Source: Candidatus Omnitrophota bacterium
GTDB lineage: Bacteria > Omnitrophota > Gorgyraeia > Zapsychrales > Fredricksoniimonadaceae
DNA length: 64,000 nucleotides
Direction of reading: 5' to 3'
NCBI GenBank assembly: GCA_903901225.1
Contig: CAIUQE010000003.1
Location: 23,461-87,460 of the forward strand
Below the pieces are notes generated by a model. The model was not told the DNA's origin. It saw only the letters and a list, made by a program, of their open reading frames with translations, and searched no databases. Position 1 is the first letter of the stretch. Each line of letters begins with the position of its first letter. The position numbers were made by a program, and so were the translations under genes. Shown one piece after another: positions 1,511-20,698 of the stretch.

Positions 1511-1520
1511 GACATTCCCC

Positions 1521-2228: not shown

Positions 2229-2235
2229 AGATCTT

Positions 2236-2973
2236 TTATGCTTCCTCTTCCGGGTTGTACTCATCCGTCTTTAATCCAAACGTCCACGCCACTGCCTCTT
2301 GAGCCGTCTTCATCGTCGGCGGCACACGAAGCGTGTAATAAGCTCCTGTTGATGGACACCGGACCTTGACCAAATACAGAGGTTCGTCATCCTGATGAAA
2401 AGAAATGCGCATGAGGTCGCGCTCCCCGTCTTTATCAATGATATCCGGGTTGAGCTGCTGAACAAATCGCTCGTAACCCATATCTTCGATCAGCAAGTGA
2501 CGAATTTCAGCATTACGAACCCGAACGATATTTTGGGCAGTAAGCCTTCCTTGAAGCAGCAACCCTTCTAAATACTCCAGCAGCTTGACGCCAACGAAAG
2601 TACGCCAGACCATCAATTTGACAGAAGTCACCCTCCCTTGATCATTCCACTGGCGGGCAATTCCGTAATACATTCCCATGCGATAAAAGCGCTGGCTTTC
2701 CAACATTCCATTCTTGTGCCAGGTGCTAACCGCGCCGTTTAACTTGCCATCGGTATACGGTTCCTCCATCATCTTGATACCATTTTCATGCCAAGACATA
2801 CAAATGCCATGATAACGGCCATTCTGAAGTAAACGACGCGAGCAAAGTTTGCCATCCGAATATAAAGTAACGACCTCACGCGTCTCATCGGAAGTCTCTC
2901 GATATTGCGTCCGGCCATCAAAACAGGAAAAGACTAGGTTAGTCTGCGACATTTCTCCATCCATCGGGCTCAT
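2236..2973 (-). CDS. MORN-repeat (YwqK-like) protein with C-terminal domain of unknown function
   Basis: Repeated Y/W-x-x-G-K/x motifs (YSDGKLCSRRLLQNGRYHGICMSWHENGIKMMEEPYTDGKLNGAVSTWHKNGMLES) typical of MORN/YwqK-type repeats. C-terminal part (CPSTGAYYTLRVPP...AWTFGL) unassigned. Confidence 0.4.
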   Translation of the reverse strand: MSPMDGEMSQTNLVFSCFDGRTQYRETSDETREVVTLYSDGKLCSRRLLQNGRYHGICMSWHENGIKMMEEPYTDGKLNGAVSTWHKNGMLESQRFYRMGMYYGIARQWNDQGRVTSVKLMVWRTFVGVKLLEYLEGLLLQGRLTAQNIVRVRNAEIRHLLIEDMGYERFVQQLNPDIIDKDGERDLMRISFHQDDEPLYLVKVRCPSTGAYYTLRVPPTMKTAQEAVAWTFGLKTDEYNPEEEA

Positions 2974-3238
2974 ACTCTCTCTGACGAATCACACGATAAA
3001 CCCCAGGCTTGAACGTGATCTGACCGTGCTCCTCGTGATTAAGATGGACGGTATCATCTGCCTTGAAATAAAGTATGCCGTCTTTCTCGTACACATCACC
3101 GGCATCTAATTTATGCGCATGTCCCGTAGCCTCACCTTCGGCCAAGACCCGGTCTTTCTTCCGGACGACCCCCTCTGGGATCCTATCAATCTTAATGATT
3201 AAGATGTCTCCCTGCCTTTTCATAGCCGTCTCCCACAT
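2939..3238 (-). CDS. small hypothetical protein (phage-like)
   Basis: 99-aa ORF, MKRQGDILIIKIDRIPEG...GEATGHAHKL. No assignable domain. Packed between two minus-strand genes. Confidence 0.3.
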   Translation of the reverse strand: MWETAMKRQGDILIIKIDRIPEGVVRKKDRVLAEGEATGHAHKLDAGDVYEKDGILYFKADDTVHLNHEEHGQITFKPGVYRVIRQREYEPDGWRNVAD

Positions 3239-4141
3239 TTATGTAAGATTATCGAAAAATACGCCTTCATCTCGATTAAAGCGAATGTGCGTTGATCCCG
3301 AGTAACCGTCAGGGCTCTTAATAATTCGTATTTCTGCGATTCCTAGGTTTTCAGGTTTAGGCTCATAATAGTCTTCCCGGTAAAGCTGCAAGACAACATC
3401 TGCATAGACGTCGAAACCACCTTCCTCGCGGGCGATCTGGGATAAGAGATGTAACGGCCGTGTTTTTTCGTGCTCTTCTGTACGACGGGATAGCCAACTC
3501 GTCACAAAAACTGTTACTTCATTGCGAACAGCCATTGCTTTTAACCTTCTGGTGACCATCTCGCACGCCTTATAGCGCGCTGCTCCATCCAATAAAGCGA
3601 CATCTTCAATACACTGCAATGGATCGATCACAATGAGTTTTACCTTATGTTCAGCGACATGTTTCTTTACTATGCGCTCAACATCCTGGACAGTACGCGT
3701 CATGGAATCAATGTAAATTGGCAACTCCGCGACTATCCCCACACCCGCAACAAACTTTGATCGCTCTGTTCCATCCATCATCCCACAACGCGCTTTAGAC
3801 CTATCCACTTTGCCTTGTGCGCAAATAAGCCCAAAAACAATGTTCCGCTGTGTTAATTGGCCCAACGAGAAATACAATACAGGCACCTTTTGCTTAGCCA
3901 CATGCGCTGTGATAGAAGCCGCAAAGGCAGTCTTCCCCATTGCCGGCCGAGATAAACAGGCGAGCAGTTCACCAGGATGAAGTCCAGACAACATACGGTC
4001 AAGATCATTAAATCCAGTTGTAATCCCAGTGAGGCCAGGCCCCTGCCGTTCCATCCGTTCAATCTTATGAAGGACATCGCCAACGACATCTTTTACCAGC
4101 ACTGGGCCGGGCTTCTTCTTTAGGAAATTTGTTAGTAACAT
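3239..4141 (-). CDS. DnaB-family replicative helicase, RecA-fold C-terminal domain only (phage/plasmid type)
   Basis: DnaB motifs H1/Walker A (GFNDLDRMLSGLHPGELLACLSRPAMGKTAFAASI), Walker B (KLIVIDPLQ), and C-terminal block (RRLKAMAVRNEVTVFVTSWLSRRTEEHEKTRPLHLLSQIAREEGGFDVYADVVLQLYREDYY). Lacks the N-terminal primase-binding domain. Confidence 0.6.
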   Translation of the reverse strand: MLLTNFLKKKPGPVLVKDVVGDVLHKIERMERQGPGLTGITTGFNDLDRMLSGLHPGELLACLSRPAMGKTAFAASITAHVAKQKVPVLYFSLGQLTQRNIVFGLICAQGKVDRSKARCGMMDGTERSKFVAGVGIVAELPIYIDSMTRTVQDVERIVKKHVAEHKVKLIVIDPLQCIEDVALLDGAARYKACEMVTRRLKAMAVRNEVTVFVTSWLSRRTEEHEKTRPLHLLSQIAREEGGFDVYADVVLQLYREDYYEPKPENLGIAEIRIIKSPDGYSGSTHIRFNRDEGVFFDNLT

Positions 4142-4212
4142 GACTCACCTTTCATTATTGGGGGCATGTGCTTAATATAAATCAGGCAGGCGACAGCATC
4201 ATGTCGCGCCAA

Positions 4213-4240
4213 TAAAAAAAGCGCCCTATAAAAGGCGCCC
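4213..4240 (-). terminator. rho-independent terminator closing the nine-gene ssp-like operon
   Basis: Plus strand reads aaaaaaaGCGCCctataaaaGGCGCcc. On the minus strand this is a GC hairpin followed by TTTTTTT, about 150 nt downstream of the protease gene stop (4389). Confidence 0.4.
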
Positions 4241-4388
4241 TGCTATCTTCCATTACCCCGTAATAAAAGGTAAGGTCATTCTGAAAACAGCTTATCTTCT
4301 CTGCGCAAATAATCCTCCCCTGTAAAATACGCCATTTCCACACTGCAATTTCTATAGGTAAAAAAACGGTCGATTATTTGCTCATACA

Positions 4389-5204
4389 TTAGATGATGCC
4401 ATTGTCTTTTGCGAGCTGCAGCACCCGTTCTGCTTTTGTTGCCTTAATAGGCTGTCCCTCTCTACCATTAGGATAGAAAGCTGACTGTACGCCAATGAAA
4501 TATAGATTGGGAGTCCAAAGGTTGTCCTTGCCCGATGGTAACCGAGCCCATACCCCGCAACCGCTCAGTCCATTGGGGCGAGCCGCCTCTTCATCCAACG
4601 TAAAATCCACTAAAAAATGACGTTGAGGATCAAACTCTGCGTAATCAGCTTTTGGTTCAATAACGCCAGAACCTAGAAAGTAATGAAAAACGGCAACCCC
4701 TTGTTTGTCGACCATCCGTGCCAATTCAACGGAGAAGCCAAACATATAAGTCGGCGTATTAGGCTCGGCAGGCAGGATACTGCCTTTGTTTAGATTAAAG
4801 AAAATAAGGTCTTTAATTTCTTTTGCGGACGAATCAATTTCCAAAAGAGCCAGGTCGTCGTCAGAATCAGAATAGAATCTATTGATTAACGGAAGCGTCT
4901 GCGCGTAAGACTTGGTTGAAATCTTGGACAGTATTTGTATAGGCGTATGCTTTACTCTGTCCTTATGAGCATCTATAAGCGATCCTTCTGGTCTAAAGAG
5001 GAATCGGAGGTCGGCGTTCTGGTAGGAACTTTTAACAACGTGCTTGCAGGTAAGAACAAAGAAGCGCTTGTTGATTTCAATAAGTGAACCGGTCCCCCAA
5101 CCTGATTCGTTGGCCGCGAGTGACACATCCACCGCAACCGTGAGAGAACAAACCGATTCAGTAATGGCCAATCTTGCCTTTTCTTCGAGATTGAGGTCTC
5201 CCAT
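4389..5204 (-). CDS. trypsin-like (S1/chymotrypsin-fold) serine protease
   Basis: Catalytic triad motifs in order: His (FVLTCKHVV), Asp (DDDLALLEID), Ser (GLSGCGVW, GxSGxxV type). Last gene of the operon. Confidence 0.5.
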   Translation of the reverse strand: MGDLNLEEKARLAITESVCSLTVAVDVSLAANESGWGTGSLIEINKRFFVLTCKHVVKSSYQNADLRFLFRPEGSLIDAHKDRVKHTPIQILSKISTKSYAQTLPLINRFYSDSDDDLALLEIDSSAKEIKDLIFFNLNKGSILPAEPNTPTYMFGFSVELARMVDKQGVAVFHYFLGSGVIEPKADYAEFDPQRHFLVDFTLDEEAARPNGLSGCGVWARLPSGKDNLWTPNLYFIGVQSAFYPNGREGQPIKATKAERVLQLAKDNGII

Positions 5205-5208
5205 AAGA

Positions 5209-5484
5209 TTATCTACAACCCGACCTAATCACGGCCACTATTTGACGAAACTTATTCTCTGGACTTTGCTTATAATACGATCTCACGACATCTACCACGT
5301 TACCTCTATTAAGACCTGGATTATCCCGACAAAGAGGATCATCAAGGTTATGTCGCCTTGCATATAATCCGTCTGCAATGCCTAAAATATAGCTATTTGC
5401 AACAGCAATCGAATGTGTATCGCTGTTCTCATCAAGCCAGTGACCATTAGGAACTTCACCTGTGTGAGTGTCTTCTTTCATCAA
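5209..5484 (-). CDS. hypothetical small protein
   Basis: 91-aa ORF with 4-nt gap to the protease gene and 21-nt gap to the cysteine desulfurase gene. No domain recognised. Confidence 0.3.
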   Translation of the reverse strand: MMKEDTHTGEVPNGHWLDENSDTHSIAVANSYILGIADGLYARRHNLDDPLCRDNPGLNRGNVVDVVRSYYKQSPENKFRQIVAVIRSGCR

Positions 5485-5505
5485 AATTCTCCCGGAGAAA
5501 TATGG

Positions 5506-6657
5506 CTAAGCTCTCAACTTCGCTACAGCGGCCCGAAGAATCGGAATGGCTTTAGCAATTTCGTCATCTGTGGTCATTCGTCCAAGACCAAAACGAATAG
5601 CACTGTTAACTCGTTCCGATGTTGCCCCCATTGCTTTAAGGACATAACTTCCTTCCCAATTTATACTCGTACAGGCAGATCCGCTTGATACCGCAAGGTC
5701 ATTCCAAAGATTCATCATCAATGTATCTGACTTAACTCCGAGAAAACTGATATTCAAATTATTGTAAAGCCGCTGTTCCATGCTGCCATTGACAACTATG
5801 TCCTTTATCCCTCCCGACAATCCCTTCAATAATTCATCACGCATACGCCTAATTCGAACAGCTTCAGCACTCATTTCCAGATTCGCAACTTCAAAAGCCT
5901 TGGCTAAGCCCACAATAAGCGGCACTGGAAGCGTTCCGGGGCGAAGTCCACGCTCCTGCCCCCCTCCGTATATGATTGGCTCAAGCCGGCACGAATTTCG
6001 CACATAAAGTGCTCCAACACCTTTTGGGCCATAAATTTTATGTGCTGAAATGGATAAAAGATCGACACCTAAATCATCTACATTGATAGGCAACTTCCCG
6101 GCCGCCTGTGTTGCGTCACAATGAAAAACAAGCCCATGCTGCCTTGAAAGCTCACCTATATCTTTAATAGGGTTGATGATGCCTATTTCGTTGTTCACAA
6201 ACATAAAGGACAAAAGGCCGGTATCAGGACGCAGAGCATCTCTGATAGCGTTAATCTTGAAGCATCCATCCTTATCTGGAGACAGATACGAAACATCAAT
6301 TAACTTCTGATCTTCAAGGCAAGCAAGAACGTCTAGAACAGACTTATGTTCAATCGCAGAGGAGACAACATGTGACTTCCCCTGTTTAGAAAGGACTTTT
6401 AATACCCCCTGCAAAGCTATATTGTTTGATTCTGTAGCTCCACTGGTGAAAATCACATCTGACCGAGAACCGGCACCGATCATTTTTGCTACAATTTGAC
6501 GTGATTTATCAATAGCATGAGCAGCCTTCTCCCCAAAGCCATGAGAAAGACTCCCGGCATTTCCAAAATCATCCTGAAAGAACGGGAACATCTCCTGGGA
6601 AACCCGGGGATCTACTGGCGTGGTCGCATGATAATCTAGATATATAGCGCGTTCCAT
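5506..6657 (-). CDS. sspA: cysteine desulfurase (class V aminotransferase; SspA/DndA/IscS-like)
   Basis: MERAIYLDYHATTPVDPRV..., SAHKIYGPKGVGALYVR (PLP-lysine motif), and C-terminal GSAC region. Sits in the same operon as the PAPS-reductase/DUF499/DUF4007-like genes. The symbol is tentative. Confidence 0.7.
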   Translation of the reverse strand: MERAIYLDYHATTPVDPRVSQEMFPFFQDDFGNAGSLSHGFGEKAAHAIDKSRQIVAKMIGAGSRSDVIFTSGATESNNIALQGVLKVLSKQGKSHVVSSAIEHKSVLDVLACLEDQKLIDVSYLSPDKDGCFKINAIRDALRPDTGLLSFMFVNNEIGIINPIKDIGELSRQHGLVFHCDATQAAGKLPINVDDLGVDLLSISAHKIYGPKGVGALYVRNSCRLEPIIYGGGQERGLRPGTLPVPLIVGLAKAFEVANLEMSAEAVRIRRMRDELLKGLSGGIKDIVVNGSMEQRLYNNLNISFLGVKSDTLMMNLWNDLAVSSGSACTSINWEGSYVLKAMGATSERVNSAIRFGLGRMTTDDEIAKAIPILRAAVAKLRA

Positions 6658-6667
6658 CTTATAAGAC

Positions 6668-7600
6668 CTAATTAGTTAATAAACGCACTCTTTGAGAATA
6701 CGAAGGCGTATCAATAGAGATGTACTTTACCGAATGCTTTTGGCAATAAGAAAGAAGATTGACCACGAGCTGTTTAATATCTTTCCTATAAGGACGAGGA
6801 TCGTCCTTTAACTGATTGTGAAGATTCGCCGTGATTTCTCCAAAATACATCTCTTTACTTGGCTTCCCGTCCAACATCGTAATCAGCCAACGAAAAACCT
6901 TGGAATCATTAAAAGATTTTCCGCCATCATCCTCAACGGAAAACAGAAGCTGATCATGTAACATACCTTCAACCGAAACCTGCTCCTCACTCAAATTCAC
7001 CCAAGGTAGATCATGAACCCAAAGATCAGCACTTTTAGGCACCACATTGTCCGGCCACGAGGCAAGATTAGATAAACCCGGAGCATTCTTTTGCGTCGAT
7101 GCATCTTTCAGAAAGGCGGCCATTTTAAGCAATGTCGCAGAATCTATTGGCGCTGCACTCTTCAATATCTGATCTACAAATAATAAATTCTCTTTTGAAG
7201 CTTCCGCCTCAACAACAGCCTCCAGATTCCCTTCCCCAAACAATTTCAATCCGTTAGTTGTAAAATTGGCGCTACCAACAAAGATCTTTCTTTGATCGAT
7301 CGAATAAATCTTTGCGTGTAAATTGTCAATTATTCCGACACGGAAATTGGCTTCTAAAGCCGTTCGGACGGCATCGAGCGATGAGGCTCCTGATAGGAAA
7401 TCATGCGGGGAAAGACGTGCCACTAAACGAACTTCAACGGCAGGGGATATATTTCTGACAAGCCATTCAATGGCAGGGCTAGTCACATATGCACTAATAA
7501 CAGTGATAAGTTTACTGGTCCTAAACTCTTGTTCTAGAATCGACTTTACTTCATCAGACTTTAGTAAGCGTCCAACAGACTTATCTCCAGGCAATGACAT
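6668..7600 (-). CDS. phospholipase D (HKD) family nuclease
   Basis: HxK(x)4D(x)6GSxN motif: LHAKIYSIDQRKIFVGSANFTTNG. 310 aa. 10-nt gap to the downstream cysteine desulfurase gene; 25-nt gap to the upstream GHKL ATPase gene. Confidence 0.6.
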   Translation of the reverse strand: MSLPGDKSVGRLLKSDEVKSILEQEFRTSKLITVISAYVTSPAIEWLVRNISPAVEVRLVARLSPHDFLSGASSLDAVRTALEANFRVGIIDNLHAKIYSIDQRKIFVGSANFTTNGLKLFGEGNLEAVVEAEASKENLLFVDQILKSAAPIDSATLLKMAAFLKDASTQKNAPGLSNLASWPDNVVPKSADLWVHDLPWVNLSEEQVSVEGMLHDQLLFSVEDDGGKSFNDSKVFRWLITMLDGKPSKEMYFGEITANLHNQLKDDPRPYRKDIKQLVVNLLSYCQKHSVKYISIDTPSYSQRVRLLTN

Positions 7601-7625
7601 TACTGGACTCCGATCAACAATATAC

Positions 7626-9446
7626 TTAATGTTCAGACATTTTTATAAATTCCCTGGCAATTCGTCCCCAATCCTGTCGAATATCTCCATAACGCTCTCT
7701 TGCTTCAGCCGAAGCTTCGTCCTCAAGACGCGCCCATGCCATCAACATTAACTTCATCGCTGTGTAAATTTTCGACCCCTTATCTTCTTCCTTTGATTGC
7801 TCTAAAAGTTCAAACAAATGATCACTTGCTGGGTGCTTGGCATTTATAACAATAATAAGCACCCCAGCCTTAGAACGAATGTCAAAGATTGCACTTCCTG
7901 GAATAGCTTGTTTTTCAAAAATAAATTTAATATCTGGCTTGAGTTGTATAATTTTAGCCGCAGCCTCACGCGTTTCTTCAACAGGAACATTTCCAATGGT
8001 TGCTAATTCCTGAGAGAGCTCCTCTACTCTTTCCTTTTCCGGAGCCTCCTGCGCCTGATCACTTTCTGATGTTTTTCCTAATTCAGCCCTTCTCTTTCGC
8101 ACTGCCTCAGAAGCACGAGCTTCTGCAGAACTCGGTCCTAATGTATCGTCTTCCCCACGCGGCTTGCCCATCCGCTGGACTTGAATAAAGATATCCTCTT
8201 TGGCTTTTTCAATCCTTTGGGAAAGTGTATATATGACTGCCCGAGGATCGTTACTGTCCTTTAAATGCTCTTTGTATTCGTTCTCAGTCATATCTTCATT
8301 TTTAGCATCTTCAAGAACATCCATCATTTTAAAATTTCGCGCTGATTGTTTAGTGTTATCAACACCAAAAATCTCATCTAACTCCGCTCCAAAATGAACT
8401 TCACAACCCCACCAGCGTTCTCTGGTGTCTGATTTATCAGTAAATGACTTTTCCATCTCAAGTTCTCTGCCCTCACGCATAACAGAAATACCAACATTCT
8501 TGGCAGCGTCTTTTCCGAACGGAGAATTCCCCCCAGAATCACGGGCCTCCTGCCTACAAATTGAATATCGCAATTTGATTGGATACGATTCACCTTCCAT
8601 CTCTACGTTAATTGTCTCTTCATGCTTAAAAACAAATGCCGGCTTCTTATCGGGAAGTTCGGGAGCTGTCGTACCCTCCATTAAATATAACGGATCATTA
8701 GGACGAACAAACATCTCTGACCCCACCAAGTCCATCTTCTTCCCATTCTTAATATATGCAGCAAATTTTATAGAGACCCTTTCCTCAGCTATAAAATATC
8801 TGTACATCCTACCGATTATCAATTCCGAATTCTCAAAAAGAGCTCTCGGTGTACGCCATTTTAACTTGTCCAACTTTGACCACACCACTAACGTCCCATG
8901 ACTTTCTAGTTTCTCAGAAATCATTTTCGCCCACTTCTCCGGCAGCTCAACAGGCTGTGGATTAGGAACAAACCTTACTTTATTCCTTTTGATTTCATCT
9001 AAATCAAGATAAGTGTGAAAACACTTCGATTTCTGCCACGAATAAACATCTACACGGCGCCCTTGGGAAATTGATGAATTGGGCAACCCCATCCCAAACT
9101 TTCCCATACCTTTTGTCTTACCATCCAAATGAGTTCCATTGCCAAATGACAACGCAAGCCTCATTATGTTGGAAGTCATGCCTGAGCCATTATCGTAAAC
9201 ACCAATCTCTTTGATACGTTGGACAACGCGTTCTTTAACAGGGCCTTCTTCGACCTCACACAAAATATGAACATCTGTCTTCTTTCTAACTGCCAATCCA
9301 GCCTGAATGCTGTTATCAACTAATTCAGCAATCGCATGCGCGGCATCGCGATACCCAGAACTGCGCATCGCCTCAACCGACAAACTTGGAGGATAAATTT
9401 CGTATTCATCATCACTATTTTTTGTGTTATCCATCTTCGGTGACAT
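7626..9446 (-). CDS. GHKL-superfamily ATPase (MORC/HATPase_c_3-like), 606 aa
   Basis: N-box AIAELVDNSIQAG, G1 box VYDNGSGM, G2-like GKFGMGL. Long C-terminal extension with a charged coiled region. Confidence 0.6.
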   Translation of the reverse strand: MSPKMDNTKNSDDEYEIYPPSLSVEAMRSSGYRDAAHAIAELVDNSIQAGLAVRKKTDVHILCEVEEGPVKERVVQRIKEIGVYDNGSGMTSNIMRLALSFGNGTHLDGKTKGMGKFGMGLPNSSISQGRRVDVYSWQKSKCFHTYLDLDEIKRNKVRFVPNPQPVELPEKWAKMISEKLESHGTLVVWSKLDKLKWRTPRALFENSELIIGRMYRYFIAEERVSIKFAAYIKNGKKMDLVGSEMFVRPNDPLYLMEGTTAPELPDKKPAFVFKHEETINVEMEGESYPIKLRYSICRQEARDSGGNSPFGKDAAKNVGISVMREGRELEMEKSFTDKSDTRERWWGCEVHFGAELDEIFGVDNTKQSARNFKMMDVLEDAKNEDMTENEYKEHLKDSNDPRAVIYTLSQRIEKAKEDIFIQVQRMGKPRGEDDTLGPSSAEARASEAVRKRRAELGKTSESDQAQEAPEKERVEELSQELATIGNVPVEETREAAAKIIQLKPDIKFIFEKQAIPGSAIFDIRSKAGVLIIVINAKHPASDHLFELLEQSKEEDKGSKIYTAMKLMLMAWARLEDEASAEARERYGDIRQDWGRIAREFIKMSEH

Positions 9447-9461
9447 TGTTTTCTCCCTGTT

Positions 9462-11063
9462 TTACCAGACATCTTCCCAAAAATTGAAACCATCACTAAT
9501 GCTTTTAAAACCCATCAGCTGATCCGCTACTGTGATAACTTTACATGTTTTATTCCCGTGGACCTTAGGTCCACGTATAACCCTTCCAATCATTTGACTA
9601 AATAAAACAACGGACTTAGTGGGTCGCGCGATAAAAGCAACGCTAGTGCGTGGCGCGTCAAAACCTGTTGTTAAGACCCCATAATTAGTTAGGATGTTTA
9701 AATGATCAGAATCACGAAATTTCTTAATAAGTTGACTTCTATGTTCTGACGGGGTGTGTGATGTAACAGATGCGCACTCCAGTCCTTTCAAATTTAATAA
9801 ATTGGAAAGTAACTTTGCATGCGCCACTGAACAGGCAAACACTAAAATCTTTGCCCCAGACTTAGCCTCCTGAATAATCCTAGTCAACAAAAGCAAATTT
9901 CTACGCTCATCCTGCGCCAGTTTATTCAAGACTTCATCTGGAATGTCTAATTCCTCAGCGATCTTCTTCTTTTCAGCAATAGATAATACAAAGCCGGGGG
10001 TGTACGGCATCCTAATAAACTCAGGAACAGCCAAATACCCTTCTTTCTGAAGATACTCAACGGGCGTTTTATATCCCTTAACTTTTAAAGTTACTTTCTG
10101 ACGATGAAAATACTTTGCTAACTTAATATCCTCCCCTGGGTTCAAAAAGGATCGTCCAGGCGTGGCAGATAAGCCTAAAACAGCCGTCTTTTCAGTTGGG
10201 GCCAGCAAATTAAGTAAATGTTGATATGTGGAGGCCGTTGCTTGATGAGCCTCATCCATAATCACCATATTCACACGGCGTGACATCTCAAGAAAAGATG
10301 GCATTTGCGAAAGGCTTCGTTTATACAACTTGGACAGGCCTGCAACAATAAAACCGTTCTGCGCTTTTGATAAATCAAAATCATAACCAGCATAATAACG
10401 ATAAAGATTAAGTGATTTATTACCTAAGACACTCCATGACTTCTGAAATTCTTCAGCAGCCTGATCACATAACTCCTCTGAATGCGCCAACCATATAACA
10501 AGACAATCTTCAGATTTAGTTCGAAAACAATCTGCTATAACATTCATAGCTGTGCGGGTCTTCCCAGAACCGGTCGGCATATGTAAAAGAACACGCCTGG
10601 GAGAGCTTTCAACAAGCTCAGAGACCTCTCTTACGGCATTCCGTTGATGATCAAACAGAGGATACTGACAAACAGTGCTTGCAATGGGCGGGGTATCCTC
10701 TGAACTATCTTCCGTCGGCAATTCGCAAGCAAAGAAGTTAAAAAGAAGCCTTGTTTTCTTTTGTTTAATAGAAAAGGATTGCCTCTTTAGTGCAAACCAA
10801 GGGTCATCCCCTGCCTGAATACCAAGCGCCAGCGCAAGATGCTCAGCATCCTCCTTCTTTAAAGCCGAAAACAACAACGCCCTCCTTCCAGCATCCAACA
10901 AAATAAAACTGGGCGAGAATTCTTTAAGAATTAAGTTAGAAAGCCGCGGAGCAGAACAACTCCGAACATCTAACTTTTCAAGCAAAGAAATTGCCTGAGG
11001 ACCTAGCATCCCGGACAAATCACTAATTCCTATTCTAGATAAAGCCTCTTTTAGGTCAGGCAT
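9462..11063 (-). CDS. SF2 DEAH-box helicase (ResIII/DEAD-like)
   Basis: Motif I LHMPTGSGKT, motif II MDEAH, motif III LSATP, motif V TTGFDAP, motif VI QMIGRVIRG. Confidence 0.7.
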   Translation of the reverse strand: MPDLKEALSRIGISDLSGMLGPQAISLLEKLDVRSCSAPRLSNLILKEFSPSFILLDAGRRALLFSALKKEDAEHLALALGIQAGDDPWFALKRQSFSIKQKKTRLLFNFFACELPTEDSSEDTPPIASTVCQYPLFDHQRNAVREVSELVESSPRRVLLHMPTGSGKTRTAMNVIADCFRTKSEDCLVIWLAHSEELCDQAAEEFQKSWSVLGNKSLNLYRYYAGYDFDLSKAQNGFIVAGLSKLYKRSLSQMPSFLEMSRRVNMVIMDEAHQATASTYQHLLNLLAPTEKTAVLGLSATPGRSFLNPGEDIKLAKYFHRQKVTLKVKGYKTPVEYLQKEGYLAVPEFIRMPYTPGFVLSIAEKKKIAEELDIPDEVLNKLAQDERRNLLLLTRIIQEAKSGAKILVFACSVAHAKLLSNLLNLKGLECASVTSHTPSEHRSQLIKKFRDSDHLNILTNYGVLTTGFDAPRTSVAFIARPTKSVVLFSQMIGRVIRGPKVHGNKTCKVITVADQLMGFKSISDGFNFWEDVW

Positions 11064-11081
11064 AACAAAATATCCTAGTAA

Positions 11082-11891
11082 TCAAAGATTACAAATCTGA
11101 CACGGGAGCTGGTCATCCTCATGATCTAGCACACTACTTAAAACTTCAACAAGCGGCCTATTGCTTTTGCTCTTCAATTCACGCTCTAGCTCTGTCTCAT
11201 GCTTGCGCTTAATTTCAGCCATACGCTCTGGCTGGACAAGCTCCTCTAAACTTTCACCGGCAATCCATGTGAAACGCTTGCCAGTGACAGGATCTGACTT
11301 CTCATACGCCATTGCTCTCTTAAAAAGATCTGGATGCCTTTCATAAAGGCCTACCCATTCCATGCGCCGCTGGAAGAAACAAAAGAAACAACCGGAACGA
11401 GAGCGCCACTTGTAATACTCAGGCAACCCCAACCCAGCCTCCTCGAGAATTTTCATAACCCCCTGTTTATCAATCTTGTGATCAACAAAAGGGAAAACAC
11501 TTGTAATATCCGCCTTGGGATTCTGATATCCCTTACGACCTTGCTCATCGTATCTGATACCAACATAACTTATTGCCTTATCTTTACCCACAAACTTCTC
11601 TAAGGGCTCAAGTTTAAGATTAACAGTGCACCAACGCATCCTTTGCGACGGCAGAAAGTAATTATTCCTAACCAACCACCAATCAAAGTCCTTCTCGGCG
11701 CTCAATCGCACAATCGGCTTGCCAAGATATTTCTCAAGCTTATGCAAATAGTCATAAGTTTCTTCAAGCTCGACGCCAGTATCACAAAAGAAATACTCAA
11801 TATCCTGGACCTTGTCCCTCATAAAAATAGCAAGAGCACTGCTATCCTTACCGCCGGAGATGCCTAATATATGACGAACTTTCTCTGCCAT
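11082..11891 (-). CDS. sspD: PAPS-reductase/ATP-pyrophosphatase family protein (SspD-like; BREX type 4 BrxP-like)
   Basis: PP-loop ILGISGGKDSSALAIF at the N-terminus. 269 aa, too short for DndC. Sits immediately downstream of the giant ATPase gene. Confidence 0.65.
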   Translation of the reverse strand: MAEKVRHILGISGGKDSSALAIFMRDKVQDIEYFFCDTGVELEETYDYLHKLEKYLGKPIVRLSAEKDFDWWLVRNNYFLPSQRMRWCTVNLKLEPLEKFVGKDKAISYVGIRYDEQGRKGYQNPKADITSVFPFVDHKIDKQGVMKILEEAGLGLPEYYKWRSRSGCFFCFFQRRMEWVGLYERHPDLFKRAMAYEKSDPVTGKRFTWIAGESLEELVQPERMAEIKRKHETELERELKSKSNRPLVEVLSSVLDHEDDQLPCQICNL

Positions 11892-11899
11892 AAAATCCT

Positions 11900-14800
11900 C
11901 TATTTAGACTCTTTAACGAGCATTTTTCTCAAAACTTCGGAAAGTGCCGATAAGAAGATCTCGGGTTTATCAGACAAACCCCGTTCATCAATAAAATCAA
12001 CCAAGCTTTGCTCTAATTGCGAAATCCGCTCTTGGTATTCATCCTGAATGTGAAAAACCTTGGCCATTTCACCATGCTTAGACGAAGTAACCGATATCTG
12101 AGCAATCTCCCCTTTTATGTCGCCAGAAATCCTTCCCCGCTCTAAAGCTATCTGTTCATATTTCTTAATTTTGTGATGGAAAGCTGCCATCTCATGCTCA
12201 TACTTTAATAAATCAGCATCCGTCCATTCCAAAGGGGGGCGACCAGTGACAACTGTAGCAATCGATTCAAGCCAGGACTTATTAGGCAAATGATCCGCCA
12301 CCCGAACCAAAAACCCCTTAAATGAAGGATCCAGAGTTACATCAATGACCAATTTAGACCTTTCCGAGATATTCGACCGCGCGTCAGAAGCTCGAGGATC
12401 AACATTAAAGGCTCGATAAAGAATCTCTTGAATGTCGTTAAAGAGCTTATTCTCCTCTTTCTGTAACTCGGCAATGCTTTCTCTGAGCTTCTCAACAAAA
12501 GCCTTAACCTCAGATTCCTGTTCCCCATCGATATTCTGAAAAGGCTTAAACCCGCAAGCAATCGGTAAATCACGGTACAAAAGCCCCGCAGGTTCTTTGG
12601 CTTCTAAGAGACACGCCCTTACTAAGCGAGTTCTTTCAGAAACATTGCGAGTCTTTTTAACATAAGTAGGAAGCCTGTTTGCAAACTCACAAAAGATTTT
12701 AACAATCTGAAGGATCGAGCCTTTTTCCTTAAACTTCTTTTGCCCCGCTTGATCCAAGAATGTCGCTATTAAATTGTCAAAAACAACTGCGCGCACTCCT
12801 TCTATCAAACAAAGCTGAACTTCGTAGTTCTTAGGGACCCTCGCCATCAATTCAAAATCCAACGCCGTTGGTTTAGGCAAAAATGTTCCCTGGTCAAACA
12901 AGGCAAATTCATTCTCATAAGCCATATAAAACGCAAGCAATACGACCGGAATAACTCCTTCACGAACACCAAAAGGCGGTTGCATTAAAAACTGATACAA
13001 TTCTAAAAGGGGGATTTTCCTTTCTCCGTTTTCTTTCAAATAAGATAAAAGACCTTTCAAGACGCCGCGCCAATGTGGGGCAACCTTTTCAGGTTCGCGA
13101 ACAAACTCCCAATAGCCATCGCCTGACTTTTGGTGCAGCTGCCCTTCAAAACACACAGCCATATACATGCTATATTCGGCAGGATATCCCTCGATCCCTA
13201 GACGCTCCTTCATATGCGAACTCATCATCCCATCCATCAACAATCGCCGACCCTGCGTCGCTGAGGAAGATATTCTCCGACGATTCAAAATTTCGTTCTT
13301 AATAATCGGCGCTTTAGAATAAATCTTATCGCAGATGTCCGAAACCCACTTGCTCAGAAGCTTTTCAGAAACCCCCTTCCGAGCCCCTTCTAAATCAAGC
13401 CAAACGACTGATTCCCCCAGTTCCCGGTCAGGTGCAAAGAATGTTTCATACGCGAGAGAAAGGACTTGTTTCTCAACCTCCAATAAGCGCGAATCAAGCT
13501 CACGCCGGGCGATTGCGTCACCCTGTAAAGCTGGGGTTTCTTTTCTAATCAACTGAAGCGCTACTAATTCAACAAAAGCATCTAACAAACGAATCGCATC
13601 ATTCGGCCGACTTATAATTGTCGCTCTTTGTACTTGCTTAGACGCACCTTCCAATAACGATTGAAGCTCCTTTGATGATCGCCGAACCGAATCTGTTGAT
13701 AAACAAAACAAGATTTGTCCGTCTACTCCTTCGATTGGCTTCTTCAACTCTTCCATTAAATCTTTATCAAGAACATACTTCTTCTTAAAGAACCGCAGAG
13801 TGCCAGATGTGAATAAATGCCTTTTGGCAACCTGAGGTCGTAACGGGAACTGCTCATTAAGCCTAGCAACCAAATCTTTGTGTGAAAACCCAGCAGCTTT
13901 CTTCTCAGATAACAACTGCTCGATATCTATATCACTGCCCCCCCAAATTGCGTATGACCCAGAATAACGGCGAAAAACAACAACCGATCTTCTCATAAGA
14001 GCACTGACACCCTCTTTAAGCCTCTTACGTTCAGCCGGGCCTCTGAGATCCAGCGCACAAATCAGTGCTTCTTCATTGACGGATATTCCTAGCGTATCCG
14101 CCATAATGTTCAACATTCCTATCGTCTTGAGCAAAGACCTCTCAAACGCATCTGAAGTCCTCGCCAAGGCGTGCTCAATCTCAGCCCAACGCTTTCCATC
14201 ATGCTGCACGAAAAGCTTCCCACCAAAATTTACAACAAAATAATCGTAGAGATTCGCAAGGGTAAAAAACTGCACCTTCGCCATATCATGAGGCAATTCA
14301 TTCTGAGCAAGAAAGTCCAAGAAGCCTTTGCTTTCAGATGATGTAAGAAAAGCAAACAAGCTGCGCTCATTCTGCAAAAAGCGGCTTCTAAAGAGTGGCG
14401 CCAAAGAGATGGCCGTCAAGGGGTGCAAAGGAAGACACTTTTCGAGAATCTTTATGACTTTCTCAGAAGACAATGAGGAGGGACTTGAAAACACTTCACG
14501 GTAAGCTTTAAATAATGGCTCGACCGTTATATCAATAACCTTTTTCTCTGTTGATGACCCAATATAATCTATGGCAGATGAAATGAGCTTAACAGTCTGA
14601 TCACTGGGGTCGACAAAAGATATCTCTTCGAACCTCCCTTGGATTTTAGCCCACTCATTACGTTTGTTGGATTCAAGTTTGGAAGCATAGCGATCAAAAG
14701 ACTGATGCAGAACGGTAAAGAAAAGAATCGGAAAGTCGCTAGACCTAGACGAAAACTCGGCGAGTCTTTGAAGAATGAAAATATCATTCTCCGAATTAAG

Positions 14801-15424
14801 CGCAGCAGATTCCAACGACTTTCCTAACTCATCAATTACCAGCAATAGGCCAGGAACATGATCCTTTCTCAAATACTCGCAAACATCTCTAAAAACACTC
14901 AGAACATCATCACTCGTGACAACCTTCCCCTGCTCTCCACGCTTTAAAAGAAGCGCGATGTCAGCGAAGACCTGGGGTCTCCTTCCCCTCGCCCCTTCTA
15001 AATGTTCAACTAAGCCGCGCATCACACCCTTGAGAATGGCAAGTTCTAGAGGTTCACGACTAGCTGAAATAATCGATCGAAAGAACCCACTACCTTTCTT
15101 GCCGATCGTCAAACTGGAAAAAAGCTTCTCCGAAAGTTTACTGCTGGCGCTAGTTAACAAATCCCTACTTAAAGAAGCTGCCCTGCACCCCTTACCACCG
15201 AGCAGATTCTTTAAATAAACGATGAAAGCTGACTTCCCTGTCCCATAAGGACCAATGATAGACCACGCCCTTGTCGAAACCGGTGAAGACAAACTCTTCG
15301 TGATACTATCAAGAACCTTCAGCCCAGATTCAGTTAAGACATACCCGTCGACATGATCGTCCATCTCCACTTGAACGGAACGATGGAAACGCGCCCGGAC
15401 TGTAAATAATTCATTAAATTTCAT
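11900..15424 (-). CDS. sspC: large P-loop ATPase, 1174 aa (DUF499/BrxC-like; SspC-like)
   Basis: Walker A IIGPYGTGKSAFIVYL near the N-terminus. The size and position between a DUF4007-like gene and a PAPS-reductase gene match SspC/BrxC architecture. Start overlaps the upstream gene stop (15424). Confidence 0.5.
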   Translation of the reverse strand: MKFNELFTVRARFHRSVQVEMDDHVDGYVLTESGLKVLDSITKSLSSPVSTRAWSIIGPYGTGKSAFIVYLKNLLGGKGCRAASLSRDLLTSASSKLSEKLFSSLTIGKKGSGFFRSIISASREPLELAILKGVMRGLVEHLEGARGRRPQVFADIALLLKRGEQGKVVTSDDVLSVFRDVCEYLRKDHVPGLLLVIDELGKSLESAALNSENDIFILQRLAEFSSRSSDFPILFFTVLHQSFDRYASKLESNKRNEWAKIQGRFEEISFVDPSDQTVKLISSAIDYIGSSTEKKVIDITVEPLFKAYREVFSSPSSLSSEKVIKILEKCLPLHPLTAISLAPLFRSRFLQNERSLFAFLTSSESKGFLDFLAQNELPHDMAKVQFFTLANLYDYFVVNFGGKLFVQHDGKRWAEIEHALARTSDAFERSLLKTIGMLNIMADTLGISVNEEALICALDLRGPAERKRLKEGVSALMRRSVVVFRRYSGSYAIWGGSDIDIEQLLSEKKAAGFSHKDLVARLNEQFPLRPQVAKRHLFTSGTLRFFKKKYVLDKDLMEELKKPIEGVDGQILFCLSTDSVRRSSKELQSLLEGASKQVQRATIISRPNDAIRLLDAFVELVALQLIRKETPALQGDAIARRELDSRLLEVEKQVLSLAYETFFAPDRELGESVVWLDLEGARKGVSEKLLSKWVSDICDKIYSKAPIIKNEILNRRRISSSATQGRRLLMDGMMSSHMKERLGIEGYPAEYSMYMAVCFEGQLHQKSGDGYWEFVREPEKVAPHWRGVLKGLLSYLKENGERKIPLLELYQFLMQPPFGVREGVIPVVLLAFYMAYENEFALFDQGTFLPKPTALDFELMARVPKNYEVQLCLIEGVRAVVFDNLIATFLDQAGQKKFKEKGSILQIVKIFCEFANRLPTYVKKTRNVSERTRLVRACLLEAKEPAGLLYRDLPIACGFKPFQNIDGEQESEVKAFVEKLRESIAELQKEENKLFNDIQEILYRAFNVDPRASDARSNISERSKLVIDVTLDPSFKGFLVRVADHLPNKSWLESIATVVTGRPPLEWTDADLLKYEHEMAAFHHKIKKYEQIALERGRISGDIKGEIAQISVTSSKHGEMAKVFHIQDEYQERISQLEQSLVDFIDERGLSDKPEIFLSALSEVLRKMLVKESK

Positions 15425-16362
15425 TATGCCTTCCGCTCGAAATACTTCTTTAGGTATTCCATTGGCTCCGGTGTTGGCGACCTGCGATAAAGCTGCCTTA
15501 ACCCAGACGTCTCATCAAAAGTAATTTGCCCATTTGTTAAACGTTCAATCTTCTCAAACCTACGTATCAAAGAATCCTCGTCAATCTTAAAAATAAGCCC
15601 TGGCGACGCCTCACCATAAGCAAGCTCCTCCAAGGAAAGAACATCTCCTTGCCCCTTTACTTTATGCCAGTAATCAAGCACAGCAAAAACTAAAAGCTCA
15701 TCGGGAAGACCCTTCTTGTCCCCACGTGAAAAAACAAATAATCCCTTCTGGCCAGCTTCAAACACTAGCTCCAACTCCACCAAAGGGCAGTCTAATGAAT
15801 CCTCTAAAAGCGTCGCGACAGAAACATTCTTTGACGGAACATAAGACCTGACAAAACAATCAATATCACGGGTTAAAGTATTGGGCGTCAATCTCGAATT
15901 ATTCTGACGAGCAAACTCCATCAGCTCCGCGAACAGATGCTCCTTAGTAAACTCAACCGAAGAAAGCTTATTAAATGCATAAAACCACGTCGAAGCTCCG
16001 CTCTTTTCCGAGGCCAAGAACCAGTGAAGAAGCCATAAAGTTGCCCCGTCTTCTAAATATGGATCCCAGCCATTATCAAAAAACAATTTCTTACCTAATG
16101 AAGTGACCTGAACTCCAGAAGCCTCTCCATTCTCTGCAGGAAGATCCTCGATCACCTTTAGTATCGTGGCCCAGTACTTAATAGCATCCACCATATTCTT
16201 ACCGACACCTAGACACACTAATGCGTCATCCTTTCTAAACAAGAAAGAATCAGAAGAAACAGCATCGACCACCTTTTTTAACCAGGTATAGCGAAAAGGG
16301 AAAGTGCCATGACCGGAGAAATTAAGCTTAAAAGAAGATTTTTCCAATGTTGAAACGCTCAT
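15424..16362 (-). CDS. sspB: DUF4007-like protein (SspB-like), first gene of operon
   Basis: N-terminal FSGHGTFPFRYTWLKK motif, which I recall as typical of DUF4007. No DGQHR (DndB) motif. 312 aa. This call is from memory of the family, not a search. Confidence 0.4.
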   Translation of the reverse strand: MSVSTLEKSSFKLNFSGHGTFPFRYTWLKKVVDAVSSDSFLFRKDDALVCLGVGKNMVDAIKYWATILKVIEDLPAENGEASGVQVTSLGKKLFFDNGWDPYLEDGATLWLLHWFLASEKSGASTWFYAFNKLSSVEFTKEHLFAELMEFARQNNSRLTPNTLTRDIDCFVRSYVPSKNVSVATLLEDSLDCPLVELELVFEAGQKGLFVFSRGDKKGLPDELLVFAVLDYWHKVKGQGDVLSLEELAYGEASPGLIFKIDEDSLIRRFEKIERLTNGQITFDETSGLRQLYRRSPTPEPMEYLKKYFERKA

Positions 16363-18140: not shown

Positions 18141-19127
18141 TCACTGAATGGATGCTAAGTAATCGGTCACTGTCTTCTTAATCTGCTGCCTAAAATTCTC
18201 GGGCTCAACAACACGAAGGCAGGGAATCCAATTCATAATTATATGAGAAACCTCCTCAGGATGCCCTGGGACGGTCTCTATAAGCATCGAGCCATCCGCT
18301 TCTTCTTTAACAATCTTCTGTAACGGAAAGTATTTACGTTCTTTGAAATACTGCACCGCTTCAGGCGCTACTTTAATCAACACTCGCTCTCCACGAACTT
18401 CATCAAACCAAACATTCACGCTGTCCTCAAGAATCTTGTCGATGTTAACTGACGGCGCAAACGACTCCTCCAAAATCTGCACATCCTGCACACGATCTAC
18501 CCGGTATTTCTGGATCTGCTTCTCACCTTTCTTAATCGCTATCAGATACCAAAACCCGTCAAAGAACGCGATCTTGAGCGGCTCAAGACAATACTCTTTC
18601 TCGATCTGGGCTGCGGAAACATATTTAATTGCGATGCGATTGCTTTCAAGAATGGCGGCTTCAAGATACTTGACCTGAGATGTTACAGGAAGAGGACTCC
18701 GCTTCGCTGGGACCTTAGCGTAATATGGCGTATAAAGATCTTTCGCCATTATCCGCTTAAATAAACTCCGGAAGGATTCCTCGAAAGTCCCTCCCAATCC
18801 ACAGGCTACTTCAAACATAAAAGACAGAAGCGAAGCCTGCTCTTCTGACAACGAGACCTTGCGTAATGAAAACCCTTCCATAAATTGATGGCGCCCGTTC
18901 TCCAAAGTCTCGATCGGATACCCGGCATCATGCAGGATCTTCAGATCTCTTTGAACAGTACGCTGGGTAACATCAAGAGTCTCAGCAACCTCCTTTGATG
19001 ATATGGACTTTCCTTTGTCCAAGATCGAAAGCATGGTAATCAGCCGTTCCACTGCCTTCTTATGCCCGTCGGCCTTCTTGCCTTTGCCTGTCCGTTTGAA
19101 TGTCACGATCTTCTTTTTCGCCGGCAT
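18141..19127 (-). CDS. WYL-domain transcriptional regulator (HTH-WYL-WCX; BrxR/CapW-like)
   Basis: HTH region ISSKEVAETLDVTQRTVQRDLKILHDAG, WYL motif FFDGFWYLIAI. Start ATG at 19127 with SD AAGGA. It overlaps the stop of the upstream nuclease gene by 4 nt. Confidence 0.6.
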   Translation of the reverse strand: MPAKKKIVTFKRTGKGKKADGHKKAVERLITMLSILDKGKSISSKEVAETLDVTQRTVQRDLKILHDAGYPIETLENGRHQFMEGFSLRKVSLSEEQASLLSFMFEVACGLGGTFEESFRSLFKRIMAKDLYTPYYAKVPAKRSPLPVTSQVKYLEAAILESNRIAIKYVSAAQIEKEYCLEPLKIAFFDGFWYLIAIKKGEKQIQKYRVDRVQDVQILEESFAPSVNIDKILEDSVNVWFDEVRGERVLIKVAPEAVQYFKERKYFPLQKIVKEEADGSMLIETVPGHPEEVSHIIMNWIPCLRVVEPENFRQQIKKTVTDYLASIQ

Positions 19128-19129
19128 AA

Positions 19130-20698
19130 TTATCCTTTCTGGAGTGCTTCTAAAGCCGCCAGTATGTCCACCATAGCTATGGTATCTAGCGCGCAATAAT
19201 CCTCAAGATCAGTGTACACTTTTTGTCTATCCGCAGGATCAACTTGATCTCCATAAGTCACGCGGGAATACTCCGTCGTAGCCTGTCCCCCGTCAGAGAT
19301 TGCCATGTCCTTGTAACTCTTTCCGCCTAAGACCGGTAGCACCTTCTTGATCGAGGCAGAACCACGCTGATCGGGATGATAATACAAGAAACTCCGAAAA
19401 ACATCTAAGAGGTCAGCCATTCTCGAACAAATATCAGCAATCCGAGACTCGTACTCCGGGAAAGAGTCCTTCATCTTATTAAGGACGTGCGATTCTTCAA
19501 ATGTGCGGTTGTAGACAACAACATTCCCCTGAATGCCAGTACACGCGCACAAGGAATCCAAGAAATCCTTCCTGGGATCGGCAGGGCTCTTTTGCAAGAA
19601 TGAATAGTGCTTCAATTCTCCACCGGGGATCTCTTGGACATGCACAGAGAACTGAATCGGGATTTGCTGGTATGGCGACGTTCCATTGAATCTTGGGATC
19701 GCCTCAAAGATCGTCTCAAAATCAATAAAATATAACGGGTACTTCATCCCCTTAACAAATGCCACGATGGCTGGCAAATCAACATGAGGTTTCCCCGCCA
19801 AGGCACACTGGTATTGAATGGCCCTAGTATCAGACAACTTGGCATTCTTAGGAATATCTTTCAAAAGCACTATCCCCTGATCCAGCATTTGAAAAGCCTT
19901 GTCCTTATTGCCCCTAAGCTCCAATACATTGCCCGGCGGAAGAAATGCCCAGCATGATAGCTTCATCTGGCACTCATAAGGTTTATTGCAATGCTTTCCT
20001 ATGGAAATCCCCGGACAGGTAGGCATATCAACGATTGCCAAAAAGCCATCAATCGTCTTTTTAATTTCGCCGGACAACAACGCAACCTTGTCGGTCACAT
20101 CAACCAATGCAAAGAACTCCTGCACATCAATATCGCCATCGCGAACATAATCACTATTGATGTGCATCAGAAAGCAGCGCCCAATCTTCAAGCCGGCCAG
20201 TTCGTAACAGTATCTTTGAAAAGCAATGTCCTGAAGGTATACATCTTTAAGATCGGTGCCGCACTTTACTTCGACAATATCCCAATACCCTATTCCTAAA
20301 CTTGATGGGACCAAGATATCGGCGCGTGAAAAGAGCCGCCCAGCCATCACCCCCGCCTCGTAGATCGGTTTCGGATTTGCCGCCGCCAACAAAGTCTTGG
20401 TTTCCTCTATATTCCGCAAGAAATCATCTTCCTGGATGCGAGCACCTCCGGGGAATCGAGTCATCGCGAGCTCGCCAACCTTATGACCGACATCAAATAC
20501 CTGCTGAAGCCTATCAGATGGTAGCGGGATCGCCTCAGGGGCATTGCATCGCATCCAAAGCAACTTTGGACACTGCAAACCATTCAAGAACTTCGACTTT
20601 GTGAGAACTTTCGGATCCTTGACTACTTTCCTGTCTCGGACAAAATCGTAAACAGCATCGTTCTTCAGCTTTTGTGACTCGAAATTTTCGTCATCCAT
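19130..20698 (-). CDS. PD-(D/E)xK (Cas4/RecB-like) nuclease fused to DEDD 3'-5' exonuclease (DUF2779-like)
   Basis: PD-(D/E)xK core GYWDIVEVKCGT in the N-terminal half. DnaQ-like Exo I motif YFIDFETI in the C-terminal half. ATG at 20698 preceded by SD AGGGG. Confidence 0.5.
   Translation of the reverse strand: MDDENFESQKLKNDAVYDFVRDRKVVKDPKVLTKSKFLNGLQCPKLLWMRCNAPEAIPLPSDRLQQVFDVGHKVGELAMTRFPGGARIQEDDFLRNIEETKTLLAAANPKPIYEAGVMAGRLFSRADILVPSSLGIGYWDIVEVKCGTDLKDVYLQDIAFQRYCYELAGLKIGRCFLMHINSDYVRDGDIDVQEFFALVDVTDKVALLSGEIKKTIDGFLAIVDMPTCPGISIGKHCNKPYECQMKLSCWAFLPPGNVLELRGNKDKAFQMLDQGIVLLKDIPKNAKLSDTRAIQYQCALAGKPHVDLPAIVAFVKGMKYPLYFIDFETIFEAIPRFNGTSPYQQIPIQFSVHVQEIPGGELKHYSFLQKSPADPRKDFLDSLCACTGIQGNVVVYNRTFEESHVLNKMKDSFPEYESRIADICSRMADLLDVFRSFLYYHPDQRGSASIKKVLPVLGGKSYKDMAISDGGQATTEYSRVTYGDQVDPADRQKVYTDLEDYCALDTIAMVDILAALEALQKG

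Follow-up and report, generated by a model that had tools for sequence, protein, structure and literature searches.

Within a 64,000-nt stretch of Candidatus Omnitrophota DNA (64 kb of contig CAIUQE010000003.1; hereafter the window), three tightly packed minus-strand genes interrupt the genes of an SspABCD phosphorothioate (PT) modification system. They encode a superfamily 2 (SF2) DEAH helicase, a GHKL ATPase and a phospholipase D (PLD)-fold nuclease with an HKD motif. Judging from sequence, this triad is probably (at roughly 70%) an ATP-dependent restriction or effector module that works together with the surrounding SspABCD PT writer. The genomic coupling of the triad to sspBCD is well supported; how the module would act, we infer.

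The triad genes lie inside an SspABCD operon

In the open reading frame (ORF) listing, the helicase gene occupies 9462-11063 (533 aa), the GHKL gene 7626-9446 (606 aa) and the PLD nuclease gene 6668-7600 (310 aa). All three are on the minus strand. The helicase and GHKL genes are separated by 15 nt (9447-9461) and the GHKL and PLD genes by 25 nt (7601-7625). A preliminary description of the locus had given precisely these gaps and had placed the triad between sspD and a cysteine desulfurase gene, in full agreement with the ORF listing and PADLOC. The gap between sspD and the helicase gene is 18 nt, and the PLD gene is followed by sspA after 10 nt. The order along transcription is sspB-sspC-sspD-helicase-GHKL-PLD-sspA.

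The modification module around the triad is complete, with full-length PADLOC matches for SspA, SspB, SspC and SspD and Pfam in agreement; all four genes share the minus strand of the triad. Directly upstream of the triad, sspD (11082..11891; PADLOC SspD 2.9e-113, Pfam PAPS_reduct) encodes a sulfurtransferase of the PAPS-reductase family. It is preceded by sspC (11900..15424; SspC 1e-280), which encodes a BrxC-like ATPase, and by sspB (15424..16362; SspB 1.8e-95, Pfam DUF4007 5.9e-84). Directly downstream of the triad lies the gene for the SspA/IscS-like cysteine desulfurase (5506..6657; SspA 2.8e-148, Aminotran_5 6.4e-76).

A purine-rich ribosome-binding site stands before each of the triad genes. 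Only two strong minus-strand terminator-like hairpins were found, each with a 10-pair stem followed by a T-run, and these flank the whole block. The first (17256-17233) ends the upstream gene and is the probable 5' boundary of the ssp-triad unit, the second (4241-4218) its probable 3' end. One other minus-strand stem of 10-11 pairs lies between them, within the PLD gene (6944-6916), and has three G-C pairs and a weak T-tail. Inside the block, weaker matches to the terminator consensus are no more frequent than in shuffled sequence, and there is no strong internal terminator. With short gaps, a ribosome-binding site per gene and strong terminators only outside the block, the ssp genes and the triad fit a single transcription unit, as expected from the earlier suggestion that the triad is embedded in the modification operon. 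An identical locus (L001) is present on metagenome contigs in ENA; no near-identical DNA was found among plasmids.

Motifs and predicted folds of the three proteins

All helicase, GHKL and HKD motifs quoted in the preliminary description are present in the translations. The 533-aa protein contains LHMPTGSGKT, MDEAH and QMIGRVIRG, with the Walker A lysine at K168 and the DEAH box at D270-H273. It matches the Pfam families ResIII (1.7e-26), DEAD (1.4e-15) and Helicase_C (2.9e-14) and, among proteins with solved structures, the sequences of RadD (6e-25), the helicase part of SauUSI (7.5e-15) and XPB. The protein is a predicted SF2 DEAH helicase/translocase of the RadD/XPB/SauUSI-like type. At least 90% conservation is seen for motifs I, Ia, II (DEAH), III, V and VI among 59 homologues. 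The N-terminal ~130 residues are variable and match no Pfam family.

The 606-aa protein matches HATPase_c_3 (1e-17) and carries the motifs ELVDNSIQAG and DNGSGM; its ATP-site residues are E41, N45, D85, G89 and the G115-G120 loop (full-length numbering). In a structural model, its fold resembles SMCHD1, MORC3 and MutL. The protein has the MORC/MutL-type GHKL+S5 ATPase module of the systems predicted by Iyer, Abhiman and Aravind in 2008 (PMC2292703). We set it beside these systems by architecture, at a level above the named families MORC and paraMORC1-5.

The GHKL protein also carries a conserved C-terminal domain (about residues 505-605). This domain recurs in the products of the third genes of two planctomycete loci, L013 (11835-12788) and L014 (11833-12777), which are neither PLD nor Cap4-like nucleases, and this hints that it forms a docking or oligomerisation module. 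Distant GHKL homologues (26-27% identity) are encoded in L093 (13692-15299) and L117 (14504-16144), downstream of sspBCD and convergent with it. No helicase of the triad family is detectable beside either of them. Further GHKL-based Ssp partners may exist.

The 310-aa protein combines an HKD PLD fold (residues 1-170) with a C-terminal winged helix (about 230-310). Its Pfam matches, PLDc_2 (1.6e-08) and RE_NgoFVII (4.6e-06), both fall in the N-terminal half. The HKD motif quoted earlier, LHAKIYSIDQRKIFVGSANF, is present in the translation. The HxK(x)4D(x)6GSxN motif of the PLD superfamily (Nuc/BfiI/SauUSI type) is intact, with catalytic motif residues H95, K97, D102, G109, S110, N112 and E127, and the domain resembles SauUSI, Nuc and BfiI in fold. 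The window protein carries only one HKD motif and would therefore need a second copy of itself for a complete active site, as do Nuc, BfiI and SauUSI.

Catalytic motifs are intact in all three window proteins and conserved among their homologues, and the triad consists of real, conserved genes rather than chance ORFs. No PT-binding domain is recognisable in the triad, and we saw no likeness to a known sulfur-binding domain.

The triad is coupled to sspBCD across many phyla

The GHKL family is large. It has more than 3000 matches in a collection clustered at 90% identity, a profile search returned 904 representatives of 50%-identity clusters at E<=1e-30, and at least 521 GTDB species genomes contain a relative. 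From these genomes, the neighbourhoods of the best 80 species-level loci were surveyed, 48 of which have full 10-kb flanks. The helicase gene lies directly upstream of the GHKL gene in 74 of the 80 loci; allowing for overlaps of a few nt raises this to 78. Two or more of sspB, sspC and sspD occur within 10 kb in 41 of the 48 fully flanked loci (85%) and in 60 of all 80. As sspBCD is carried by ~3% of genomes (PMC12914056), this linkage goes well beyond what chance or the usual clustering in defence islands would produce. The closest ssp gene (sspD, or sspC if sspD was undetected) is located upstream on the same strand in 33 loci and downstream on the opposite strand, hence convergent, in 23.

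The arrangement of the window recurs elsewhere. Unrelated contigs with GHKL homologues at 45-54% identity, among them contigs at 49-53% of which one belongs to a Phycisphaerae metagenome-assembled genome, show the order sspB-sspC-sspD-helicase-GHKL followed by a gene for ~318 aa. Insertion of the triad between sspD and sspA is found in three unrelated lineages, namely in the window, in the metagenome locus L127 and on plasmid A of Anabaena (Trichormus) variabilis ATCC 29413. On plasmid A (NC_007410.1, about 323-337 kb), SspC and SspD are followed by two small genes, a DndB-like protein, the helicase, an ATP-binding protein, the PLD protein and a cysteine desulfurase. The triad likewise adjoins sspBCD on a Hymenobacter plasmid and on Mesorhizobium pOM4. 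The A. variabilis, Hymenobacter and Mesorhizobium records give only generic product names for the triad.

Neither SspE nor SspFGH is encoded in 60 of the 80 loci. The same is true for the window, where tblastn across all 64 kb and PADLOC on the window proteins detected no SspE, SspF, SspG or SspH. This leaves the triad as the only candidate effector beside SspABCD there. The relationship was also approached from the opposite side, with a survey anchored on SspD that covered 31 metagenome loci with sspC, sspD and at least 5 kb downstream. Six of these contain the helicase-GHKL pair, three SspF(G) and two SspE, one locus having both the pair and SspE; no effector is recognisable in 21. The sample is small and biased, yet its counts indicate that the module is no less frequent than SspE or SspFGH.

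The proposal that the triad is a PT-linked partner, already put forward in the preliminary description, is therefore upheld as regards linkage to sspBCD. It has to be qualified in that the triad is not always the sole partner, since SspE or SspFGH stands beside it in some loci.

Several observations weigh against the proposed role. The module often co-occurs with other partners, with SspF/G(H) in 11 loci and with SspE-like proteins in six genome loci, and as such partners are already sufficient, it could be auxiliary. In seven of the 48 fully flanked loci, sspBCD is missing from the 10 kb on either side. Four of the seven, from cyanobacteria and an Anaerolineae metagenome-assembled genome (L061, L068, L080 and L082), have no nuclease-sized third gene either, and the neighbours scanned in L068 and L082 are housekeeping genes around a bare helicase-GHKL pair. 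Microcoleus vaginatus HSN003 (CP031705.1) provides one example of a bare pair. Such pairs may be decayed remnants, partners of unlinked genes, or proteins with another role. Finally, the sample of the reverse survey is skewed towards SspD similar to that of the window, besides being small.

Loci without nearby ssp genes would be expected if the triad were an autonomous MORC-helicase-nuclease defence system in the sense of Iyer et al., which shares islands with Ssp but does not read PT. Operons combining MORC or paraMORC ATPases with an SF2 helicase and a nuclease have been predicted to be stand-alone, restriction-like systems (PMC2292703), and the position of the window block on what appears to be a low-GC mobile island would suit such a system too. 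We nevertheless consider autonomy unlikely. The presence of sspBCD in 85% of the fully flanked loci, across many phyla, speaks against it, as does the repeated insertion between sspD and sspA. Furthermore, the surveyed loci have no DNA methyltransferase gene next to the triad, nor any other gene for self-marking.

A conserved helicase-GHKL core with a replaceable nuclease

The preliminary description treated the three genes as a unit. This holds for the helicase and the GHKL ATPase, which form the conserved core, but not for the nuclease, which occupies a replaceable slot. Among the 80 loci, the gene after GHKL belongs to the PLD and winged-helix family in 42 and encodes a Cap4-like nuclease in 15, so that one or the other follows in 57 loci. 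The conserved helicase and nuclease neighbourhood that characterises the systems of Iyer et al. is therefore found here together with the GHKL+S5 module, in line with the MORC-type theme invoked earlier for the triad.

The Cap4-like slot proteins have a length of ~360 aa and come mostly from Betaproteobacteria, Pseudomonas and Rhizobiales. Their N-terminus, with a sequence starting GGREAIRGF..Q, matches the PADLOC model "Effector Endonuclease" (1.8e-15 and 6.4e-18), which we read as Cap4-like. The helicase in these 15 loci has only ~24% identity to the window helicase; in L025, a weak DinG match is the only one it has.

The occupation of the same slot by different nuclease folds suggests that selection maintains the nuclease activity itself. 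This swapping of unrelated folds is typical of defence effectors. It argues against the idea that the triad serves the modification pathway or the repair of its by-products, processing nicks or intermediates of PT installation in a MutL-UvrD-like manner. We regard such a role as highly improbable, because IscS-SspBCD alone, without any triad, gives a PT self-mark in E. coli that is read by SspE and SspFGH (PMC8092258), most sspBCD loci have no triad, and the whole block in the window is apparently carried by a mobile island.

In at least ten loci, the variant triad with the Cap4-like slot is directly contiguous with sspF-sspG-sspH. These six-gene blocks are found in L018, L020, L021, L024, L028, L031, L033 and L041 (at about 50-12850) and in L025 and L035 (8400-21800). 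In L018, for instance, the order is sspF-sspG-sspH-helicase-GHKL-nuclease, with sspD-sspC-sspB convergent. SspFGH is thus often part of a six-gene block, and an interplay of both modules, of which we found no report, is possible.

Relationship to known systems

Comparison with the profiles of SspE, SspFGH, DndFGH, PbeA-D and DISARM yielded only partial or motif-level matches. PADLOC and NCBIfam matches were counted at E<=0.01, and for the helicase the best 25 of 32 PADLOC matches were considered.

The preliminary description had left open whether the triad is SspFGH itself. This identity is now excluded. The PADLOC models detect SspF (1.5e-245), SspG (8e-218) and SspH (E=0) in L025 and L126, and the triad has no match to any of them (for the helicase, among the best 25 of 32); tblastn of these genuine proteins against the window was likewise empty. 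SspABCD-SspFGH of Vibrio anguillarum FF-93 (PMC8092258) resembles the triad in being a three-gene restriction module beside sspBCD. SspFGH is ATP-dependent, damages non-PT DNA and often shares loci with the variant triad. However, there is no sequence relationship. SspF has a Walker A motif only, and SspH has an FtsK-like C-terminus (PMC8092258). SspH is HerA/FtsK-like, with a length of ~1770 aa. The triad has a different domain content, with SF2 helicase, GHKL ATPase and PLD nuclease domains.

SspE was rejected as well. Its PADLOC model is functional (E=0 in L056), and the triad has no DUF262 (GmrSD_N) or DUF1524 (GmrSD_C) match in Pfam or PADLOC, nor did tblastn return any, in keeping with the earlier remark that no DUF262-like GTPase is visible. 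SspE, a DUF262 NTPase joined to a DUF1524 nuclease, is similar to the triad in being an Ssp-associated effector encoded right after sspD. In contrast to the triad, it is a single polypeptide from another fold family, and in some loci it accompanies the triad instead of substituting for it. The triad does not look like DndFGH either, as had been noted before. No DndF, DndG or DndH match is among those listed by PADLOC and NCBIfam, whose DndFGH models had no positive control here. The sole dnd-related match is that of TIGR04095 to the helicase, at 74 bits against a cutoff of 600.

Among PADLOC models, the helicase matches PbeA best (1.4e-32), within the helicase part of the profile (positions 243-618 of 672). 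PbeA is a fusion of HKD nuclease and SF2 helicase that is found beside Dnd. Its partners are an ABC ATPase of the CxC type and a DndE-like protein (PMC10853773). Like the triad, PbeA brings the two activities together in connection with PT. In the triad, however, HKD nuclease and helicase are separate genes with a GHKL gene between them, and the modification partner is Ssp rather than Dnd. PbeABCD was rejected, as the match is limited to the helicase part of PbeA and no ABC ATPase or DndE was found among the neighbouring genes scanned. The Pbe core (the CxC ABC ATPase PbeC and the DndE-like PbeD) is therefore absent here; PbeB is a small disordered protein of Pbe.

The PLD domain and the helicase also resemble the corresponding parts of SauUSI (PDB 7CLG), an ATP-dependent type IV enzyme. 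Unlike the triad, SauUSI is a single chain that recognises modified cytosine through a C-terminal target-recognition domain. It has no GHKL component and attacks modified DNA. Taken as a whole, the parts of the triad resemble a split PLD-helicase enzyme of the SauUSI/PbeA type in which a MORC/MutL-type ATPase separates the two halves. The operons described by Iyer et al. share with it a GHKL+S5 ATPase, an SF2 (Rad25/XPB-like) helicase and a nuclease, sometimes of the HKD type. They differ in that they are tied to DNA methylases and Vsr endonucleases, and no link to phosphorothioation was reported for them (PMC2292703).

DISARM (DrmA/B/C) also contains a helicase and a PLD nuclease, DrmC. The triad differs from it by the absence of a DUF1998 protein (DrmB), a methylase and an SNF2 protein. 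DISARM was rejected because DrmC reaches 27.7 bits in NCBIfam against a cutoff of 133, through the HKD motif only, and DrmA and DrmB have no match. Three further candidates were discarded. The MzaB equivalog of MZA reaches 55.4 bits (cutoff 850) in the N-terminal GHKL domain only, the RadD equivalog 135 bits (cutoff 720) in the helicase core alone, and the Azaca matches (ZacB/ZacC) are partial or motif-level.

A proposed mode of action

If the triad is a restriction module of Ssp, its components suggest the following course of events. SspABCD would mark host DNA with single-strand PT. The RadD/XPB/SauUSI-like helicase would load on DNA and translocate. GHKL ATPases generally dimerise upon ATP binding, and the MORC/MutL-like protein could, as an ATP-bound dimer, clamp or loop DNA and act as the switch of the complex. 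The ATPase would then unite two single-HKD PLD copies, so that DNA without PT is cut. On host DNA, an encounter with PT would stop this activation or keep it from starting, as has been proposed for DndFGH and SspFGH. In this scheme, we infer the three-protein complex, the gating of the nuclease by the ATPase, the PT-sensing component, and inhibition as opposed to activation by PT.

Alternatively, PT may activate the triad. SspE, the best-studied Ssp partner, acts in this way (PMC8092258). Host PT would then be needed for its ATPase and nuclease to turn against invading DNA, and without SspBCD the triad would be inert, not toxic. Helicase-GHKL pairs that have no sspBCD in the surrounding 10 kb would be tolerable under these circumstances, and the triad does adjoin SspE-like proteins, both in the six genome loci mentioned above and in the metagenome locus L127. 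We think activation by PT rather unlikely, though a more serious competitor than autonomy. Four of the seven fully flanked loci without sspBCD nearby also have no nuclease-sized third gene, ATP-translocating helicase-nucleases (Type I/III, DndFGH and SspFGH) generally attack unmarked DNA, and the placement between sspD and sspA looks like the classic coupling of a toxic restriction activity to its protective mark.

Returning to inhibition by PT, a more specific version is conceivable, which we put forward tentatively and hold to be possible rather than probable. Here, the MORC/SMCHD1-like ATPase would form the deciding centre of a third, widespread restriction arm of Ssp. It would read PT, either directly or via its helicase or winged-helix partner, dimerise with ATP and assemble the single-HKD active site on unmarked DNA. 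If true, it would provide, for the first time, a mechanistic model in which a bacterial MORC acts upon an epigenetic self-mark, with a parallel in eukaryotic silencing by MORC and SMCHD1.

The building blocks of the triad and the MORC-helicase-nuclease theme were already predicted in 2008. What would be new is a previously undescribed effector module of PT-based restriction-modification. In openly searchable full texts, with subscription-only papers outside the search, we came across no account of a helicase-GHKL-PLD partner for Ssp, and none of these papers mentions both phosphorothioation and GHKL. Recent reappraisals of PT and BREX systems (PMC10853773, PMC12839542) do not mention a GHKL partner of Ssp. 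PADLOC v2 and NCBIfam name only SspABCD at such loci, and thus miss a probable effector.

According to PMC8092258, ~15% of sspBCD clusters have a known restriction partner (SspFGH 7.3%, SspE 7.4%). The module could explain a substantial share of the remaining clusters. Prokaryotic MORC-like ATPases, predicted in 2008 and essentially uncharacterised, would gain an epigenetic context and a tractable test system. Cultured hosts of the operon are available with A. variabilis ATCC 29413 (plasmid A) and Mesorhizobium (plasmid).

DndB-like companions and genomic surroundings

In some loci, a DndB-like protein of 770-900 aa with a DGQHR motif is encoded between sspD and the helicase gene. Such proteins were found in three loci and A. 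variabilis in total, with coordinates of 2051-4312 in L034, 1737-3962 in L119 and 4866-7172 in L170 (A. variabilis plasmid A). In L065 (4593-7295), a DndB-like protein follows the GHKL gene on a contig without ssp genes. The A. variabilis protein was considered as a candidate SspE and rejected, with a BLASTP E value of 0.92 and the DndB-type DGQHR motif. The DndB-like protein may be a regulator or a further Ssp effector.

The remaining genes around the ssp-triad block that are described here, between 2236 and 20758 of the window, are on the minus strand. Downstream of sspA, and within the same terminator-bounded unit, lie a 91-aa ORF (5209-5484) and, after it, a 271-aa ORF (4389-5204) with weak matches to LmuA (6.4e-10) and Trypsin_2 (0.0084). 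Beyond the terminator follow a 300-aa DnaB_C/AAA_25-like protein (3239-4141) and a DUF6745 protein (2236-2973).

Ahead of sspB are a 120-aa ORF (16657-17019) and, as called in L001, a 49-aa zinc-ribbon ORF. A 276-aa protein without a family match is encoded upstream of the 17256-17233 terminator. Further upstream lie a WYL-domain helix-turn-helix regulator (18141..19196; PADLOC WYL 6.3e-36, with HTH_11, WYL and WCX on the identical L001 gene) and a DUF2779/UU173-like protein (19130-20758). WYL-type regulators are common beside defence islands, and the genes upstream of sspB look like a regulator set typical of such an island.

GC content differs along the window, with 42-49% over the first ~30 kb and 57-62% beyond 40 kb. 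Besides many small ORFs without annotation, the low-GC part contains genes for a serine recombinase/resolvase (21298-21834) and for a 905-aa DUF3631 protein (26583-29300). No tRNA gene was found in the window. Based on these features, the ssp-triad block appears to ride on an integrated mobile element.

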